The notes below the pieces were generated by a model, which had not been told where the DNA came from, did not search any database, and saw only the letters and a list, made by a program, of their open reading frames with translations. From positions 69,861 through 133,860 of IMG/VR virus record IMGVR_UViG_3300049218_000083: 64,000 nucleotides of DNA; one strand, written 5' to 3'. Both the position numbers and the translations under genes were made by a program. Shown here piece after piece: positions 4,103 to 49,818 of this stretch. Positions within the stretch are counted from its first letter, which is position 1. Each line of letters begins with the position of its first letter. Source of the stretch: a virus.

Positions 4103-4590
4103 TATTCTTTACTCTTACAATTATCGAAGTGGTATCTCTTCATCACTGGACCTTTCCCTTGTTTGTCACAGTGTGGACAGCTTACCAAAGGATGTGGATG
4201 GTAATTTCCTCTGTTGCCTACACCATACTGATTTCCTTGATGGGATCGGCTAATCTTTTCATTTGCTTCCTTGGTTCTTGTCCAAGGACCTTTCTTGTTA
4301 ACGTATGGTCGACCTTTCAATTTAGCAGACATCTTTGCTCGGTATTCAGGAGTCTTCACATATGACATATCTCGATTCTTAATTCCCTCACGCAAAGCTA
4401 TCAGTCTTCCTTCTTCACCAGTAACTCGACCAGATAACATCTCCCAAGCCAATTCATCTTGCCATCTACCATGCTGCTCGAACAGCACACGATGAGCCTC
4501 AGCGTGTTGCTCTATAGTCAATTCCACAAGGTTAGATGGATCGTCGGATCCACCAGCATGCCTTGGGTTTATGTGATGTAAATGGTTCAA
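4102..4590 (-). CDS. HNH homing endonuclease-like protein
   Basis: HHINPRHAGGSDDPSNLVELTIEQHAEAH; C-terminal CPHC..RYHFDNCK. Confidence 0.8.
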   Translation of the reverse strand: MNHLHHINPRHAGGSDDPSNLVELTIEQHAEAHRVLFEQHGRWQDELAWEMLSGRVTGEEGRLIALREGIKNRDMSYVKTPEYRAKMSAKLKGRPYVNKKGPWTRTKEANEKISRSHQGNQYGVGNRGNYHPHPLVSCPHCDKQGKGPVMKRYHFDNCKSKE

Positions 4591-22557: not shown

Positions 22558-23016
22558 TTAGTTCAATGTTCTTTTTGGAGACAAGTCATCTTCGGTGTAT
22601 TGAGCCTTCGCATCGTCGCAGTCATCTTCGACTAATGAGAGCTCGTCAGCCTCGAATGCGTTTATGTCTTCATCATGACCATCATACAAACCGATGTACG
22701 CTTCTGGATCTTCTTCGCCAGTAACGGTGTTGATACCAGTGTACAAAACAGAGAATGGGTGGACCTTAGCTTGGCAGTCTTCACAAAGGAATTCTTCGAT
22801 GAGGTTGTCGTATCCGTCATCGATAAGGATGCAGATACCTTCGTGGCCGGCATGAACGGCACACATTTTGGTTTTGTCGCGGGGATCAGGAATGAGAAGT
22901 GCTTTGGAACGGTTTTCCTGAGGCATCCATTCCAGTACTTGATTGAGAGCAGTGGTAAGGATAGTGACAACATCATCATGACTAAGGGAAGTCTTCTTGT
23001 CGTCGTCACTCACCAT
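22558..23016 (-). CDS. Acidic hypothetical protein
   Basis: ORF with AGGAG RBS; CEDC. Confidence 0.6.
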   Translation of the reverse strand: MVSDDDKKTSLSHDDVVTILTTALNQVLEWMPQENRSKALLIPDPRDKTKMCAVHAGHEGICILIDDGYDNLIEEFLCEDCQAKVHPFSVLYTGINTVTGEEDPEAYIGLYDGHDEDINAFEADELSLVEDDCDDAKAQYTEDDLSPKRTLN

Positions 23017-23035
23017 CGCTCTCCTGTTAGAAAAG

Positions 23036-23320
23036 AGTGGCAGCTTATGAGGAACCCGGAAAGCTGCCGAAACCTGGTGAGAAATTACGCTGCTAGGCGG
23101 AATTCCTCAGATGCATTTTCAGTTGCATTTATACTGTTTTGCTTCATTTAGATGGTCGAACCACCAAGACGATAGCTTGTCTGTTGCCTTTACTTTTATC
23201 TCTTCCCGTCGAAAACTATTTCGCCCCCGAAGGTCGCCTAGCAGGGCGATAGTGGTGGAGGCGTCGGTTTCGCAACCGAGTCCGCAAAGCATTATAGCAA
23301 AGGAATTACAACATTCTGTT
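23036..23320 (-). ncRNA. ssrA: Circularly permuted (two-piece) tmRNA
   Basis: T-arm plus CGCCTCC-A-CCA (ends 23253), 24-nt spacer hairpin, then GGGGGCG..TTCGAC (G1=23228); G3-U70; tag ATENASEEFRLAA* at 23126-23085 after ATAAAT; P2 pairing; 3' hairpin GGCAGCTT/AAGCTGCC. Confidence 0.92.
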
Positions 23321-23908
23321 CATTTTATTTAGAGATTCATATTCGGTTCTATAGAACTCTCTTCTTTCAATTTTATTTAGCCCCTCATCAAGATTTGTCA
23401 AAAGTCCACCATGAGCAACCAACCCAAATATGTCAATTAACTTTGATTCATAGGATAATGCGTCAAGTTCGGAAATGTCAGTTATAAGTTTTACAACTTT
23501 TACTTCTTCACCAAAAGCCTCAATTTTTAATTTTATTTTTCTATGGGTCTCATTTCTATTTAATTCGTAACATCTATTACCCATACCCTTTCCAATGTAA
23601 AATGGCATATGTGTCATACCAAGAGTTGCGCCAAATGTAGTTTGCCCAGCTCTACCAATAGCAATTTTTTTAGTTGTATCTAAATGAGCATAAACATAAT
23701 ATTCTTTATTCGGATCTAATTCCAAATTCGAATACACAGATTTTATATCTGTATCATAAATTTTTCTACAATTATCAATTATTTGTCTAACCTTTTCGTT
23801 TTTTGATGGTTTATTTGATATTTGGGCAAGTCGACCCTTGACCTTACCGTAGTGTTCAAGTAACTTGACTGGGTCATCCCAGTCAAGTATAAATGTCTTT
23901 TCGTTCAT
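23306..23908 (-). CDS. GIY-YIG (LEM3-like) endonuclease, very AT-rich
   Basis: YYVYAHLD..PFYIGKGMGNR..ALSYESKLIDIFG..LTN; 3' end overlaps tmRNA 5' end. Confidence 0.78.
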   Translation of the reverse strand: MNEKTFILDWDDPVKLLEHYGKVKGRLAQISNKPSKNEKVRQIIDNCRKIYDTDIKSVYSNLELDPNKEYYVYAHLDTTKKIAIGRAGQTTFGATLGMTHMPFYIGKGMGNRCYELNRNETHRKIKLKIEAFGEEVKVVKLITDISELDALSYESKLIDIFGLVAHGGLLTNLDEGLNKIERREFYRTEYESLNKMNRML

Positions 23909-24555
23909 TTGAACCTCAACTTTTTGTATGAAAGAAGACGTTTTCTCTTGCCCGCAGGGATCGGAGCAGTTGCAAACGCTGTCATCACATTGCCAATGTC
24001 CGGTTCATAAAACGGATAGGTCGTAACACCAAGTTCCTTACAGTCATTGAGAGCTACAGCCATCTCACTTAAATCATGAACTCCTATCACTGCGAAGTAA
24101 AGCTCATCAAAGAATGATTGACTGAGAGCACCACTACGATGACCCATCTTCGCAGCAGCATGTGATGCCTGAACCAGCTGATACTCAGGTGAGATATCCT
24201 GGCGAACGAAAATGTAAATGTAATGGCGGTCAGTTGGTGCTGGCTCGTATGACTTATACAGTTCCTTGAGAACTTCATGGAAACGCTTGCGCTCTTCCTC
24301 TGTCTCGCAGAATGTTTCAGTCGCCCACTGGGCTTCTCTGAGTGCAACCGCAACGGTGTCATATGGCAAACGACCGTTGTCAAGTTTCTTCTTTCTGGTG
24401 ATTGGACTGAATCCGGAACGGATGATTTGGTTGGCGACCTTTACTGCGTCGTCACCATACTCCATACCGATGCAGATAGCACGTTGAACAACATGCCATC
24501 GTTCGAGTTGCTTGGTCTTAGCCAAGTCTTTGAAAATTGCTCTAAAGTTCTTCAT
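23905..24555 (-). CDS. Peptidyl-tRNA hydrolase 2 (PTH2)-like domain protein with N-terminal extension
   Basis: YIFVRQDISPEYQLVQASHAA..FYEPDIGNVMTAFATAP. Confidence 0.75.
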   Translation of the reverse strand: MKNFRAIFKDLAKTKQLERWHVVQRAICIGMEYGDDAVKVANQIIRSGFSPITRKKKLDNGRLPYDTVAVALREAQWATETFCETEEERKRFHEVLKELYKSYEPAPTDRHYIYIFVRQDISPEYQLVQASHAAAKMGHRSGALSQSFFDELYFAVIGVHDLSEMAVALNDCKELGVTTYPFYEPDIGNVMTAFATAPIPAGKRKRLLSYKKLRFK

Positions 24556-24774
24556 TGAAATTCTCCATCTATTGATACTGAATGATAATCGTCTCAAGCA
24601 GTAGCAACGAGGAGGACCTCGCGCATAACAAAAGTTCTACGTGTCAGGAACCTAGATTTCGAATTCTTGTTTCATAATTATGTCCTTGGTGGAATATCGC
24701 CCCAACCAGTGGATGCATTTCCACCTGGAAGGATAGCGACCCAGCCGTCTTTTTCGAACCAAGTCTTGACCATG

Positions 24775-25144: not shown

Positions 25145-25221
25145 TGGCGCGCGAGGCGGGCATCGAACCCGCAACCTTCAGTTTTAGAGACTGCGCTCTA
25201 GCCAAGTTGAGCTACACGCGC
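25145..25221 (-). tRNA. Amber suppressor tRNA (anticodon CUA), Trp-like body
   Basis: Loop CTCTAAA; TTCGA T-loop; G73; encoded CCA. Confidence 0.88.
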
Positions 25222-33949: not shown

Positions 33950-34534
33950 CTATGGTTTCTTCGTAATAACCCGATCGATCAAACCATACTGCTGAGCCTC
34001 GAGACTGGTCATGAAATTGTCCCGATCGCTGTCCTTCTCAACCTGTTCCGCTGGCTTGCCGGTATGGCTGCCCAGAATTTCATTCAGGCGAACCTTGGTC
34101 TTCTCAACATCGCGAGCATGGATCAGGATGTCCGATGCCTGACCATAGAACCCAGCGCTCGGCTGGTGAATCATGATCTTGGAGTTGGGAAGAGCGAACC
34201 GTTTGCCCTTGGCACCTGCCGCAAGCAACACTGCACCCATGGACGCAGCAACGCCAAGGCAGATAGTTGAGATCGGCGACCTGATGAACTGCATCGTGTC
34301 GTAGATGGCCATCCCGGAACTCACAGAGCCACCTGGTGAGTTGATGTAGAGGCAAATATCCTTGTCGTCGTTCTCATTCTCGAGATACAACAACTGGGCG
34401 ACGATGGAGTTGGCCACCATGTCATCGATGCCACCAGTCAGAAACACAACGCGCTCTTTCATCAGGCGCGAGTAAATGTCATAGCCACGTTCACCACGTG
34501 GACCAGACTCAACAACCATTGGGACAAGATTCAT
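33950..34534 (-). CDS. clpP: ATP-dependent Clp protease proteolytic subunit
   Basis: YDIYSRL; INSPGG; AASMG (Ser), IMIHQP (His), DRDNF (Asp). Confidence 0.95.
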
Positions 34535-39656: not shown

Positions 39657-40190
39657 GTTGCTCAATTGAACCTTCAATGTCAAAGGGTAGATCTTGTTGA
39701 GCTGAAGGCTGGTCTTTCGAGTGTAAGGAATCTTTACCCAATGATAGTCAGACTTCAACTGTTTTTCGATCGCTTCGTATTTAGCGCACTCATCGACATA
39801 GCGAGTTTGCTCAGCTGCGTTCTTGGCATCAGCATCCGGATCTCCAGGACCATGGGTCCGAGTGATATAATCCCAAATGCCAGTTTTGCTGTACCACTGA
39901 CGCGTTGGATACTTGTGGCCCAACTTCTGCATCGTGTTGTAATCCCACTCTTTGCCAGTCACCTTGTGGACAAACACGCGGCGATACAGTTGCTGTTCAA
40001 CGCAAACAGAAATTTCCTGCGGACGATCCTTGGTTGCTTCCCGGACAATACGATATCCGAGATAGATACCCTTCGCTGCGTATGCGCTGCCTGTACACTT
40101 GGTCACAGACAAGATCGGATCGCCTGGATTGATCACGTCACCATGATCATTGGTGAACGGATTTTTCAAAATCGGTTTTAGTTTCGCCAC
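39648..40190 (-). CDS. Hypothetical protein (N-term similar to 41237-41638)
   Basis: TND.G..INPGD..VT..KGIYLG. Confidence 0.6.
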   Translation of the reverse strand: MAKLKPILKNPFTNDHGDVINPGDPILSVTKCTGSAYAAKGIYLGYRIVREATKDRPQEISVCVEQQLYRRVFVHKVTGKEWDYNTMQKLGHKYPTRQWYSKTGIWDYITRTHGPGDPDADAKNAAEQTRYVDECAKYEAIEKQLKSDYHWVKIPYTRKTSLQLNKIYPLTLKVQLSNAP

Positions 40191-40219
40191 GTCATTCTCC
40201 TCTTACAAGTCAAAATCGG

Positions 40220-40467
40220 CACTATCCCTATAGCCAGGTTTCTGTCTGTGTTGAGCCTATCCCAACACTCATCCATCATTCGCCTCAGGCTTTCGCCTGG
40301 TCACCAATTGTGACTGCCGCAACCCGACCTCATAGGGTGAAGCTTCCCTCGGTCTGTTAGCGTTGCTGGCCACGTTGCTAGTGCTAACGACTTTCGTCTC
40401 CTAACAGCTTCGAGCCAGTCCTGAACTTCCTCTAGGGTTTCCGCCCCAGCGATGGATCGGGATAGTG
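40220..40467 (-). ncRNA. rnpB: RNase P RNA, compact form
   Basis: P1 CACTATCCC/GGGATAGTG; CR-I GAGGAAGTTCAGG; CR-V ACAGAAACCTGGCT; P4 AG(U)UCAGG:CCUGGCU; P2 ATCCATCG/TGATGGAT; P19 GTGTTGGG/CTCAACAC. Confidence 0.88.
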
Positions 40468-40472
40468 AAACC

Positions 40473-40838
40473 TTAAACTTTCTTGGCCTTTTGAACTGCT
40501 TTCTTCGCAGCTTCAATTCTAGCGCGTTCTTTCTTAACCACCTTCTCCATCTCGAGTATCTTGGCCTTTGCTTGAAGCATGATCTCGATGGCCTTGTCGA
40601 TCTTCTCGAGTTTCATCTCGGAGTCGGAGTCGTATTCTTCGAAGTCCCAAGTGATCACGCGATTGCAATCACCAAGACTCATGGTGAAGTCAACGTTGAT
40701 GTAATCCTTGTCTGGCGAATCAGCCTTGCTGACATAGACGTGCGCTTTGTAGCGAATGAAGCTGCCGGTGTCGAGTGGATCGATAAAGTCTCCACCAGTG
40801 ACACGGATCAGGTCATCGCGATTCTTTTTCTTCGGCAT
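40473..40838 (-). CDS. Hypothetical protein
   Basis: 121 aa, coiled-coil C-term. Confidence 0.6.
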   Translation of the reverse strand: MPKKKNRDDLIRVTGGDFIDPLDTGSFIRYKAHVYVSKADSPDKDYINVDFTMSLGDCNRVITWDFEEYDSDSEMKLEKIDKAIEIMLQAKAKILEMEKVVKKERARIEAAKKAVQKAKKV

Positions 40839-41214
40839 CTACTTCTCCATCTGGTAAAACTGCGTCCTTGGGAACTTCTTTCCAAAGACCATCATCTTTG
40901 ACTTCCACTTTGATTTGTCGCATCTGGCGCGCAACATTGTCCTGGATCACTGCCTCGGTGCCGTTGCGTCGCATGATTTCCATCTTGTGCCACACCTTGA
41001 ATTTATCAGTGTTGCACATACGTTCAAAGGCAGTGCTGCGGTTTTGGCGCTGTACTCTAGAGTCTTCTGCATACCCATGGGCACCACTGGCTCGGTGGGT
41101 ACAGTGAACCGCTGAGTTCGTCTTATTCTTCTTCTGACCACCATTGCCGGTGCCGCGAGTGTAGGACCAATCGCAGTCGGCAGCGGTAACAGAGAAGAGT
41201 AACTCGCGAGCCAT
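40813..41214 (-). CDS. Class I release-factor-like GGQ peptidyl-tRNA hydrolase domain protein
   Basis: RGTGNGGQKKNKTNSAVHCTH..SRVQRQNR..A. Confidence 0.88.
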   Translation of the reverse strand: MARELLFSVTAADCDWSYTRGTGNGGQKKNKTNSAVHCTHRASGAHGYAEDSRVQRQNRSTAFERMCNTDKFKVWHKMEIMRRNGTEAVIQDNVARQMRQIKVEVKDDGLWKEVPKDAVLPDGEVDAEEKESR

Positions 41215-45969: not shown

Positions 45970-46046
45970 TGGTAGCGAGTGGCAGGATTCGAACCTGCGT
46001 TCTTCAGCTTATGAGACTGACGAGATGGCCTCTTCTCCACACCGCA
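45970..46046 (-). tRNA. tRNA-Met(CAT), initiator-like 1:72 mismatch
   Basis: Loop CTCATAA; T1:T72; lacks the three G-C anticodon pairs. Confidence 0.8.
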
Positions 46047-46054
46047 TAATCGTG

Positions 46055-46375
46055 ATAGTGTTTGTGTTAGATTTTCGAGAAGTTGTCAAGCTTCTATCTT
46101 TCCCAGCACCTCTAGTTGTTCAGGTTCACTTGACTCCGCAGGATGGCCGTCCTGCCTCAACATCAAGGAGAGTCTTTCACTCTCAGCACCGTCGCCTTCT
46201 GACTTTATGTGTCTACCGACTGTGCAGCGATCCCAGGCTGTTTCCATATCTGACCTGGTACTTTCTACCCTTACTCTAAATGCCGTCTACTCAAATATTG
46301 CGTATGGACTTTCGCAACTGCCTTTCCGCCGAAGGACGCGTCTTATCAGCCACAAAAACCCAACACAAACACTAC
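46055..46375 (-). ncRNA. ~320-nt structured ncRNA candidate
   Basis: 23-bp closing helix whose four non-WC pairs are all G-U on the minus strand; several internal hairpins; no ORF. Confidence 0.7.
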
Positions 46376-46383
46376 AAACAAAC

Positions 46384-46458
46384 TGGTGGTGATACTGAGA
46401 ATCGAACTCAGGTTAATGGCTTATGAGACCACTGTCTTTGCCGCTGGACGATATCACC
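46384..46458 (-). tRNA. tRNA-Met/Ile2(CAT)
   Basis: Loop CTCATAA. Confidence 0.87.
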
Positions 46459-47790: not shown

Positions 47791-47865
47791 TGGAGCTCCC
47801 ACTCAGAATCGAACTGAGTTCTCAGGATTACAAAACCAGCGCATCGCCACGTATGCTTTGGGAGC
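47791..47865 (-). tRNA. tRNA-Thr(TGT)
   Basis: Loop TTTGTAA. Confidence 0.85.
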
Positions 47866-48960: not shown

Positions 48961-49034
48961 TGGTGGGATTGATGGGAGTTAAACCACGTGACCTCTCACC
49001 GTTAAGTGAGCGCTCTACACTGAGCTACAACCCC
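48961..49034 (-). tRNA. Degenerate tRNA-Val-like (AAC?)
   Basis: 6-nt loop TTAACG; irregular T-arm. Confidence 0.5.
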
Positions 49035-49784: not shown

Positions 49785-49818
49785 TATTTAGCTTGATGTT
49801 ACCATTCAGTGTATTTAG
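49785..49818 (-). promoter_or_regulatory. Two T4-late-like CTAAATA motifs upstream of the ncRNA/tRNA array
   Basis: tatttag at 49785-49791 and 49812-49818. Confidence 0.5.

Follow-up and report, generated by a model that had tools for sequence, protein, structure and literature searches.

Whether a phage carries a working gene for transfer-messenger RNA (tmRNA), and what such a gene would do for it, is the question raised by a locus at positions 23036-23313 on the minus strand of a viral DNA stretch of 64,000 nucleotides (the window), which comprises bases 69861-133860 of the 166,743-bp IMG/VR record IMGVR_UViG_3300049218_000083. An earlier note, made from the letters of this stretch alone, had read the locus as a permuted two-piece tmRNA with an alphaproteobacterial-style tag. 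tmRNA is charged by alanyl-tRNA synthetase (AlaRS) via a G3:U70 pair and is delivered to stalled ribosomes by SmpB and EF-Tu, and the LAA end of its tag is read by ClpX. In two-piece tmRNA (reviewed in PMC11915505), RNase P cuts at G1, the 3' end is trimmed to CCA, and the two pieces are paired via the acceptor stem and the P2 helix.

Identification and anatomy of the gene

The gene is a phage-borne, circularly permuted two-piece tmRNA (ssrA), and the match on which this identification stands is far beyond chance. The Rfam covariance model RF04321 (tmRNA_permuted), which has a curated cut-off of 47 bits, matches 23085-23313 on the minus strand with 100.7 bits and an E value of 1.9e-18 over model positions 1-213 of 213. 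This is the Rfam check that the earlier note had proposed, and it bears out the identification. The alpha_tmRNA model RF01849 (cut-off 50 bits) matches 23036-23357 with 50.4 bits, only 0.4 bits above its cut-off; it is the best-scoring of the three subtype models for the window copy, and overlapping matches from the same clan scored lower. Rfam finds a single tmRNA match in the whole 166,743-bp record. ARAGORN with a relaxed threshold (-ps) also detects a permuted tmRNA here; its boundaries are identical, and its tag is ATENASEEFRLAA followed by a stop. Additionally, the unconstrained minimum-energy fold of the precursor, at -89.2 kcal/mol (z -2.5), gives P2, the T-arm, the acceptor stem and the spacer hairpin.

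The gene features an acceptor piece, a spacer and a coding piece, in that order, so that the CCA end at 23253 lies upstream of G1 at 23228 on the minus strand. The acceptor piece (23253-23313) was delimited by covariance-model alignment, pairing and covariation in relatives, and it contains the 5' strands of P2, the GGAC element, the T-arm, the acceptor 3' strand CGCCTCC, the discriminator A and an encoded CCA. The tRNA-like 3' half reads GGAC-TCGGT-TGCGAA-ACCGA-CGCCTCC-A-CCA. The spacer (23229-23252) is 24 nt long and forms a 5-bp hairpin (TCGCC/GGCGA), and its removal in maturation is expected. The coding piece (23036-23228) begins with GGGGGCG and contains UUUUCGAC, the 3' strands of P2, two hairpins, the tag reading frame and a 3' pseudoknot. 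The acceptor stem GGGGGCG/CGCCUCC has seven pairs, including G3:U70, and is followed by the discriminator A and CCA. The T-stem has 5 bp (TCGGT/ACCGA), and GGAC at 23283-23280 and UUUUCGAC at 23215-23208 are elements of the elbow that binds SmpB. P2 joins the two halves through TGTTG/CAACA, which pairs 23313-23309 with 23186-23182, and through CCTTTGCT/AGTAAAGG, which pairs 23303-23296 with 23194-23187 and includes one G-U pair.

The tag reading frame (23085-23126) runs from the GCA resume codon at 23126 to a TAA stop that ends at 23085, and it encodes ATENASEEFRLAA in 13 codons that end in RLAA. It was called by ARAGORN -ps and is in agreement with the covariance-model alignment and with homologous tags in relatives. 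TATAAAT stands directly 5' of the resume codon, and two hairpins (23182-23167 and 23165-23151) lie 5' of the tag. The gene ends in an H-type pseudoknot (23039-23077) with stems S1 (CCAGG/CCGGG) and S2 (GGCAGC/GCTGCC), followed by ACU and a U-rich tail. The anatomy that the earlier note had drawn was thus recovered in full and at exact minus-strand coordinates: the 3' end, the hairpin spacer and the GGGGGCG start, the G3-U70 alanine determinant in a seven-pair stem with discriminator A, both P2 pairings across the two halves, and ATAAAT before a GCA-initiated tag ending in LAA.

Relatives at the same locus and covariation

Relatives were fetched around homologues of the protein encoded at 23905-24597, which has 60 metagenome homologues, several of them on contigs of 100-180 kb. 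The nine loci obtained represent seven distinct uncultivated phages. In all nine a non-coding gap lies directly downstream of the homologue, and each gap contains a permuted tmRNA that Rfam scores at 81.7-121.7 bits. The loci share a gene order of PTH2-like gene, tmRNA, acidic open reading frame (ORF) of about 143 aa, PhoH, cell-wall hydrolase, dehydrogenase and late coactivator. No decayed copy, with a broken acceptor stem or a lost tag frame, is found among them. Other routes to relatives yielded little: an IMG/VR search with two small flanking ORFs returned none, the exact T-arm/acceptor string had no match in IMG/VR, and neither megablast nor blastn gave a match to the locus among 50,697 phage records. 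A pattern search for the 3' pseudoknot had no IMG/VR match and hit two metagenome contigs, of which L155 was new.

RNAalifold on eight syntenic sequences predicted 46 pairs, 35 of which show at least one double compensatory change. The pairs cover the three P2 segments, the T-arm, the acceptor stem, the spacer helix and the 3' hairpin, and most pairs of the P2 segments feature double changes across relatives. All 8 aligned sequences retain the G:U pair at position 3:70 of the acceptor stem. The acceptor stem and T-stem are fully paired in eight of the nine syntenic sequences despite differing sequence (the T-arm of L151 was resolved by eye), and the acceptor 3' strands CGCCUCC, AUGGUCC, CAGGUCC, CCGGUCC, CAGAUCC and CAUCUCC each occur with their complement. 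In the 3' pseudoknot of eight syntenic sequences, S1 has 4-5 of 5 pairs and S2 is always fully paired, with five different strand sequences (GGCAGC, GGCCGC, GGUGGC, GGUGGG and longer forms), and ACU and a U-rich tail follow. Spacer length ranges from 8 to 82 nt in the relatives, as is expected of a discarded segment. The relatives' tags are homologous to the window tag and retain starts of the ANDN/ANDD type.

The gene is real and under selection. Because compensatory changes occur together with a conserved position, the pattern argues for a structured RNA selected within the phage lineage and against the recent capture of a host fragment. The 119 alpha-type viral loci known from IMG/VR gave only short BLAST matches to the window gene and were therefore unusable for lineage-specific covariation. 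One peculiarity was seen in L151 (~4310-4345), where the acceptor 3' strand with CCA (CATCTCCACCA) is duplicated 11 nt apart, giving two possible 3' ends of the acceptor piece.

Transcription

A 269-nt contig from a moss metatranscriptome (X8) is identical, with zero differences, to 22948-23216 and covers the coding piece minus 12 nt of its predicted 5' end; in the same metatranscriptome 56% of the words sampled from the gene are present. The contig is consistent with transcription and spacer loss and gives a hint that the gene is expressed. A relative's tmRNA was found in a peat metatranscriptome (X9), with a tag that ends in FEPMRLAA, like that of L155.

The motif CTAAATA at 23326-23332 (minus strand) is a probable T4-type late promoter of the tmRNA precursor. 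[C/A]TAAATA lies 9-14 nt upstream of the P2 strand in seven of nine syntenic sequences (the window and eight relatives) and farther upstream in the other two. Of CTAAATA itself the window has 12 copies on the minus strand, which is the gene strand, and none on the plus strand. Minus-strand sites of the [C/A]TAAATA form number 15, including those at 49818, 49791, 43137, 31524, 25240, 23380, 23332, 17219, 10994 and 5039. CTAAATA copies precede the tmRNA, the tRNA array and a CUA tRNA, as well as several genes that have ribosome-binding sites. In T4 the known late promoter is TATAAATA. Owing to this likeness and to a gp33-type coactivator gene in the phage genome, CTAAATA is probably the late-promoter motif of the phage, and transcription of the tmRNA would be of the late type.

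The phage and its source

The virus record is about 98% complete by CheckV, and the public sequencing runs in which its sequence occurs come from moss metagenomes. Among the gene products are the T4-type baseplate proteins gp6 and gp5, together with PhoH, NAMPT and a class II ribonucleotide reductase; a gp33-like late-transcription coactivator, a clamp-loader ATPase and a gp59 loader are also encoded. The gp6 protein reaches no more than 39% identity to gp6 of Melnitz (a Methylophilales phage), HTVC008M (a Pelagibacter phage) and cyanomyoviruses, and the phage is therefore placed as a distant T4-like myovirus of the Kyanoviridae type. Three tRNA-like genes at 45974-46045, 47794-47865 and 48964-49034 (minus strand) were found with the Rfam tRNA model and are absent from the ARAGORN list, so the tRNA array has about 40 members, not 37. 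A standard RNase P RNA considered at 40220-40467 (minus strand) was rejected as unsupported, since a permissive Rfam search of 39900-40800 returned no family at E <= 1.

Three further products of the phage relate to translation rescue and are counted in favour of a rescue role of the tmRNA. A full-length ClpP subunit is encoded at 33950-34534 (minus strand; 277 bits), in a gene that ends in TAG. A 133-aa protein encoded at 40813-41214 (minus strand) consists of an RF-1/GGQ domain only (PF00472, 50.3 bits); in sequence it resembles stop-codon-independent release factors of the ArfB/ICT1 type and would provide a second ribosome-rescue route. The third is the PTH2-like domain protein encoded upstream of the tmRNA. 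No gene for ClpX or another AAA_2 unfoldase was found in the phage genome.

Proposed function and alternatives

Every sequence element of the canonical mechanism is present in the window gene, and a functional two-piece tmRNA that the phage maintains for canonical ribosome rescue is, judged from sequence, the reading in which we place considerable confidence. The precursor would be transcribed, probably from the late-type promoter at 23332-23326. Host RNase P would cut at G23228, host 3' processing would expose the CCA at 23253, and the 24-nt spacer would be discarded. The expected products, joined by the acceptor stem and P2, measure about 61-68 nt (acceptor piece) and about 190 nt (coding piece). 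Host AlaRS would charge the RNA through G3:U70, and host SmpB and EF-Tu would bring it to ribosomes stalled on broken or stop-less mRNAs. Resumption at GCA would append (A)ATENASEEFRLAA and free the ribosome, and the LAA end would send the tagged product to a ClpXP-type protease in which ClpP, and not ClpX, could come from the phage. All proteins except ClpP would thus be supplied by the host. The likely benefit would be a supply of free ribosomes late in infection, at a time of host mRNA degradation and after host ssrA has ceased to be transcribed.

A number of observations weigh against this reading. ARAGORN at default settings lists 37 tRNAs and no tmRNA in the window, so that the ARAGORN check proposed by the earlier note failed by default and succeeded, with the same gene and tag, only with -ps. 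The T-loop UGCGAA has 6 nt and is non-canonical, like those of alpha-type copies; P2a contains one G-G mismatch and S1 of the pseudoknot one A-G mismatch. The PK1 tertiary pairing upstream of the tag was not established by the fold or by RNAalifold, which gave hairpins only. No SmpB gene was found in the phage genome, and function would rest on compatibility with the host. A scan for sigma-70 promoters and terminators gave nothing convincing beside the gene, and the promoter call is made from the motif. The 269-nt RNA contig is without the spacer and the acceptor piece and extends 88 nt beyond the predicted 3' end into the downstream ORF; the RNA evidence as a whole consists of assembled contigs from one library, in which DNA carry-over is possible and processed ends cannot be read.

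A working tmRNA could alternatively serve proteome remodelling, in which host or readthrough polypeptides are tagged and degraded by phage ClpP and their amino acids recycled, and in which an amber suppressor might feed ribosomes past UAG to mRNA ends. A full ClpP is available from the phage itself, at least five phages have a conserved CUA tRNA near the tmRNA, behind a CTAAATA motif, and amino-acid recycling was raised as a possibility for Melnitz by Buchholz et al. (PMC9004378). However, tmRNA is accepted only by ribosomes that stand at an mRNA end with their A site empty, and selective tagging would need an extra targeting step. Suppression would also affect phage proteins, since phage genes use TAG too (about 24 of 203 minus-strand ORFs, clpP included), and the phage has no gene for ClpX or an adaptor. 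We regard such a role as improbable.

Less probable still is that the RNA acts as a decoy or competitor, which would titrate host SmpB or displace the host tmRNA and so block trans-translation or swap the tag. The tRNA-like-domain-only tmRNA of DS6A resembles a molecule that was shown to inhibit tmRNA, perhaps via SmpB titration (PMC4131195, PMC11915505), the phage itself is without SmpB, and the window tag starts with ATEN and thereby departs from the ANDN of almost all other alpha-type copies. An SmpB sponge would have no need of an mRNA-like domain, a resume context, an LAA tag or a 3' pseudoknot, however, and all of these are conserved with covariation, while tags of the ANDN/ANDD type are kept in relatives. 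A functionless passenger, that is, a piece of host DNA or cargo of the adjacent GIY-YIG homing-endonuclease-like gene, is the most remote of the explanations, for although such an ORF abuts the tmRNA, similar ORFs are scattered in this region of relatives and ssrA is a common prophage integration site whose fragments occur in phage DNA (PMC9004378), the gene is full-length and single-copy in a lytic T4-type genome, keeps its place in relatives that share just 33-60% identity in the neighbouring protein and for the most part are without the endonuclease ORF, shows compensatory changes that indicate selection on structure, and has a G+C content of about 45-47% that matches the 47.7% of the phage and is unlike that of typical alphaproteobacterial ssrA.

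Subtype of the tRNA-like domain and the host

By its sequence the tRNA-like domain is of the alphaproteobacterial type, and the non-canonical T-loop UGCGAA that the earlier note had likened to alphaproteobacterial tmRNAs fits this assignment. The domain agrees with tmRNAs of Gemmobacter metagenome-assembled genomes (MAGs) at 29 of 33 positions (with one compensatory pair) and at 18 of 24 positions, as against only 15-23 of 33 for the syntenic phage relatives. The T-arm pattern occurs in 9 of about 185,000 species genomes and lies within a permuted ssrA in only two, both of them Gemmobacter MAGs. The window copy shares one and the same acceptor stem with Gemmobacter, Melnitz and the 119 alpha-type viral loci. 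The window T-loop is one base shorter than the UGCGAUA of 21 alpha-type viral loci, and the tag starts with ATEN and not with the usual alpha ANDN; nearly all of about 90 alpha-type copies examined begin with AN. BLAST against 401 sampled genomes of the class to which the Gemmobacter MAG belongs gave a best match of 81% identity over 68 nt.

The subtype label itself is unstable for these phage copies. L145, L146, L149 and L150, four of the nine relative loci, pass the cut-off of the beta_tmRNA model RF01850 with 85-91 bits, and the close relatives L145 and L147 split across the alpha and beta cut-offs. It was observed for this pair that the tag and the 3' pseudoknot are identical and that the T-stem and spacer differ. 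The suggestion of the earlier note that the tmRNA hints at the host is accordingly weak: the alpha cut-off is passed by 0.4 bits, four of the nine relative loci pass the beta cut-off, the tag starts with ATEN, and the tmRNA of Melnitz is alpha-type and yet its host belongs to the Methylophilales (PMC9004378). Naming a host from the likeness to Gemmobacter tmRNA was rejected, as the evidence was judged too thin. An alphaproteobacterial host is plausible, with perhaps an even chance, and is not established by the tmRNA.

Neighbouring genes

The PTH2-like (peptidyl-tRNA hydrolase 2) gene at 23905-24597 (minus strand) lies upstream of the tmRNA and encodes a two-domain protein with a PTH2-like C-terminal half; the tmRNA is directly downstream of its homologue in 9 of 9 loci fetched. 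In the ESM Atlas the protein has a feature score of 0.92 and a TM of 0.80 to viral PTH2 clusters. The two top PDB matches of the family profile are PTH2 proteins (E 0.044 and 0.64), PF01981 is matched by 2 of 38 family members, and a homologous stretch of Salmonella phage Arash is annotated as peptidyl-tRNA hydrolase. The window protein has no direct Pfam match, PHROG and PDB sequence searches with it were negative or uninformative, and its N-terminal ~100 aa had no match. The profile search and the ESM Atlas together support a remote PTH2 domain in the C-terminal half. No full-length homologue was found in isolated phages, Melnitz included; those of full length came solely from uncultivated phages.

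Between this gene and the tmRNA lies an ORF at 23306-23908 (minus strand), which matches the LEM-3 GIY-YIG family PF22945 weakly (E 6e-4) and extends with its stop codon into the tmRNA leader. No such ORF stands here in L145-L153, which represent the seven phages; the end of a similar ORF is apparently present in L155 (~1170-1290). Two relatives have clear GIY-YIG/NUMOD3 genes at other sites within this region. By sequence the ORF looks like a mobile homing-endonuclease insertion.

A lone tRNA with a CUA anticodon, an amber suppressor, is located upstream of the PTH2-like gene at 25145-25221 (minus strand), where ARAGORN labels it 'Pyl', and CTAAATA lies 12 nt upstream of it. CUA tRNAs were found at the equivalent site in L145 (4483-4559), L147 (2947-3023), L151 (2329-2405) and L152 (663-738), which makes at least five phages with the window. 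Directly downstream of the tmRNA is an acidic 152-aa ORF (22558-23016, minus strand), into which the RNA contig runs. It has no family match and is 50% identical to an ORF of L152 at the same place.

Suppressor tRNA, two-domain PTH2-like protein, two-piece tmRNA and acidic ORF could together form an undescribed translation-rescue module of T4-like phages from moss and peat, in which the tRNA-like domain would be exchanged or retuned to suit a new host's SmpB, AlaRS and RNase P. In such a module at least the tRNA and the tmRNA follow the late-type CTAAATA motif, and ClpP and the ArfB-like factor are encoded at other sites of the phage genome. The idea of exchange or retuning arises because, within the fixed locus, the tRNA-like domain is alpha-like or beta-like and the 3' pseudoknot is almost invariant. 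We put the module forward tentatively and consider it rather doubtful as a whole.

Implications

The tmRNA call mainly improves annotation. We know of no experimental demonstration of the function of any phage tmRNA, and the linkage of suppressor tRNA, PTH2-like hydrolase and tmRNA offers a concrete gene set with which to address the reasons that large lytic phages have for investing in ribosome rescue. That the tRNA-like domain varies while its locus is fixed cautions against host prediction from tmRNA subtype. Default ARAGORN misses the window copy and four of the nine relative loci, and three of those four are missed even at the relaxed threshold. The published census of phage tmRNAs used ARAGORN (PMC9004378). 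Two-piece tmRNAs of phages are therefore under-counted outside marine samples. The conserved arrangement of suppressor tRNA, PTH2-like gene and tmRNA, the variable tRNA-like domain and the ARAGORN misses are the fresh material of this analysis.

Comparison with known systems

Phage tmRNAs have been listed since at least 2014, among them those of mycobacteriophages and Bacillus phage G (PMC4131195), and a 2025 tmRNA database holds 79 bacteriophage sequences (PMC11915505). Buchholz et al. (2022) counted 133 unique tmRNAs, spread over 402 of 18,146 phage genomes; 53 of the 133 are two-piece, 50 of these from aquatic phages, and 17 of 47 Melnitz-like contigs carry a two-piece tmRNA (PMC9004378). 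Pelagimyophages and further marine T4-like phages are among the carriers of two-piece forms (PMC9004378). The view of the earlier note that a phage copy is unusual does not hold, given these 53 of 133 and an SsrA annotated in the same neighbourhood of Melnitz (MZ577097.1). An alpha-type acceptor motif is also present in more than 119 IMG/VR contigs, in most of which ARAGORN reads permuted tmRNAs with AN...LAA tags, and tmRNA is annotated in the alphaproteobacterial phages Lacusarx and AP-J-162.

Among bacteria, the two-piece tmRNA of Caulobacter and other alphaproteobacteria was reportedly described by Keiler, Shapiro and Williams in 2000 (cited in PMC9004378). The alphaproteobacterial form (RF01849) resembles the window gene in its order of acceptor piece, spacer and coding piece, in G3:U70, in its non-canonical T-loop, in a P2 formed between the pieces and in a terminal pseudoknot ending in CACU. 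The window gene differs from it in being phage-encoded without smpB, in a tag starting with ATEN and not ANDN, and in the margin of 0.4 bits to RF01849. The two-piece tmRNA of betaproteobacteria is said to have been described by Sharkady and Williams in 2004 (cited in PMC9004378). The four relatives that pass its model, RF01850, share the position, the P2 leader and the 3' pseudoknot design of the window gene, whereas the window gene is without their canonical UUCGA T-loop and long spacer.

The cluster C mycobacteriophages, Bacillus phage G (one-piece) and DS6A (tRNA-like domain only) likewise have a phage ssrA without a phage smpB and are tRNA-rich (PMC4131195). In contrast to the window gene, their tmRNAs are not permuted, that of DS6A is without a tag frame, and both the phages and their hosts are unrelated.

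The closest likeness is to Melnitz (MZ577097.1), which has an alpha-type tmRNA and a non-alphaproteobacterial host of the Methylophilales (PMC9004378). Its annotated SsrA at 45984-46436 is permuted like the window gene. Both phages are T4-like of the Kyanoviridae type, with gp6 proteins that are 39% identical, and both tmRNAs feature the acceptor stem CGCCUCC/GGGGGCG, the same 3' pseudoknot design and a tag ending in LAA. There is no BLAST nucleotide match between the two. The spacer has 24 nt in the window and about 146 nt in Melnitz, the T-loops are UGCGAA and GGCAGUA, and the tags are ATENASEEFRLAA and ANDNYVPVDYALAA, respectively. The Melnitz spacer (~46120-46270) contains an ATG-led stretch, possibly a small ORF. 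The late-type motif is the sole promoter candidate in the window, whereas in Melnitz a sigma-70-like promoter overlapping a TATAAATA is present. Rfam returned no glutamine riboswitch in the window. The window sequence comes from a moss metagenome and not from a marine one, and a PTH2-like gene and a CUA tRNA flank the window tmRNA, whereas no full-length PTH2-like homologue was found in Melnitz. In Melnitz, SsrA is preceded by a PDDEXK nuclease and PhoH and immediately followed by the late coactivator and gp59; in the window a PDDEXK nuclease likewise lies upstream, and PhoH, a cell-wall hydrolase, the late coactivator and gp59 are near. Because the neighbourhood is the same, the window gene is the positional counterpart of the published phage ssrA of Melnitz and belongs to a known kind.

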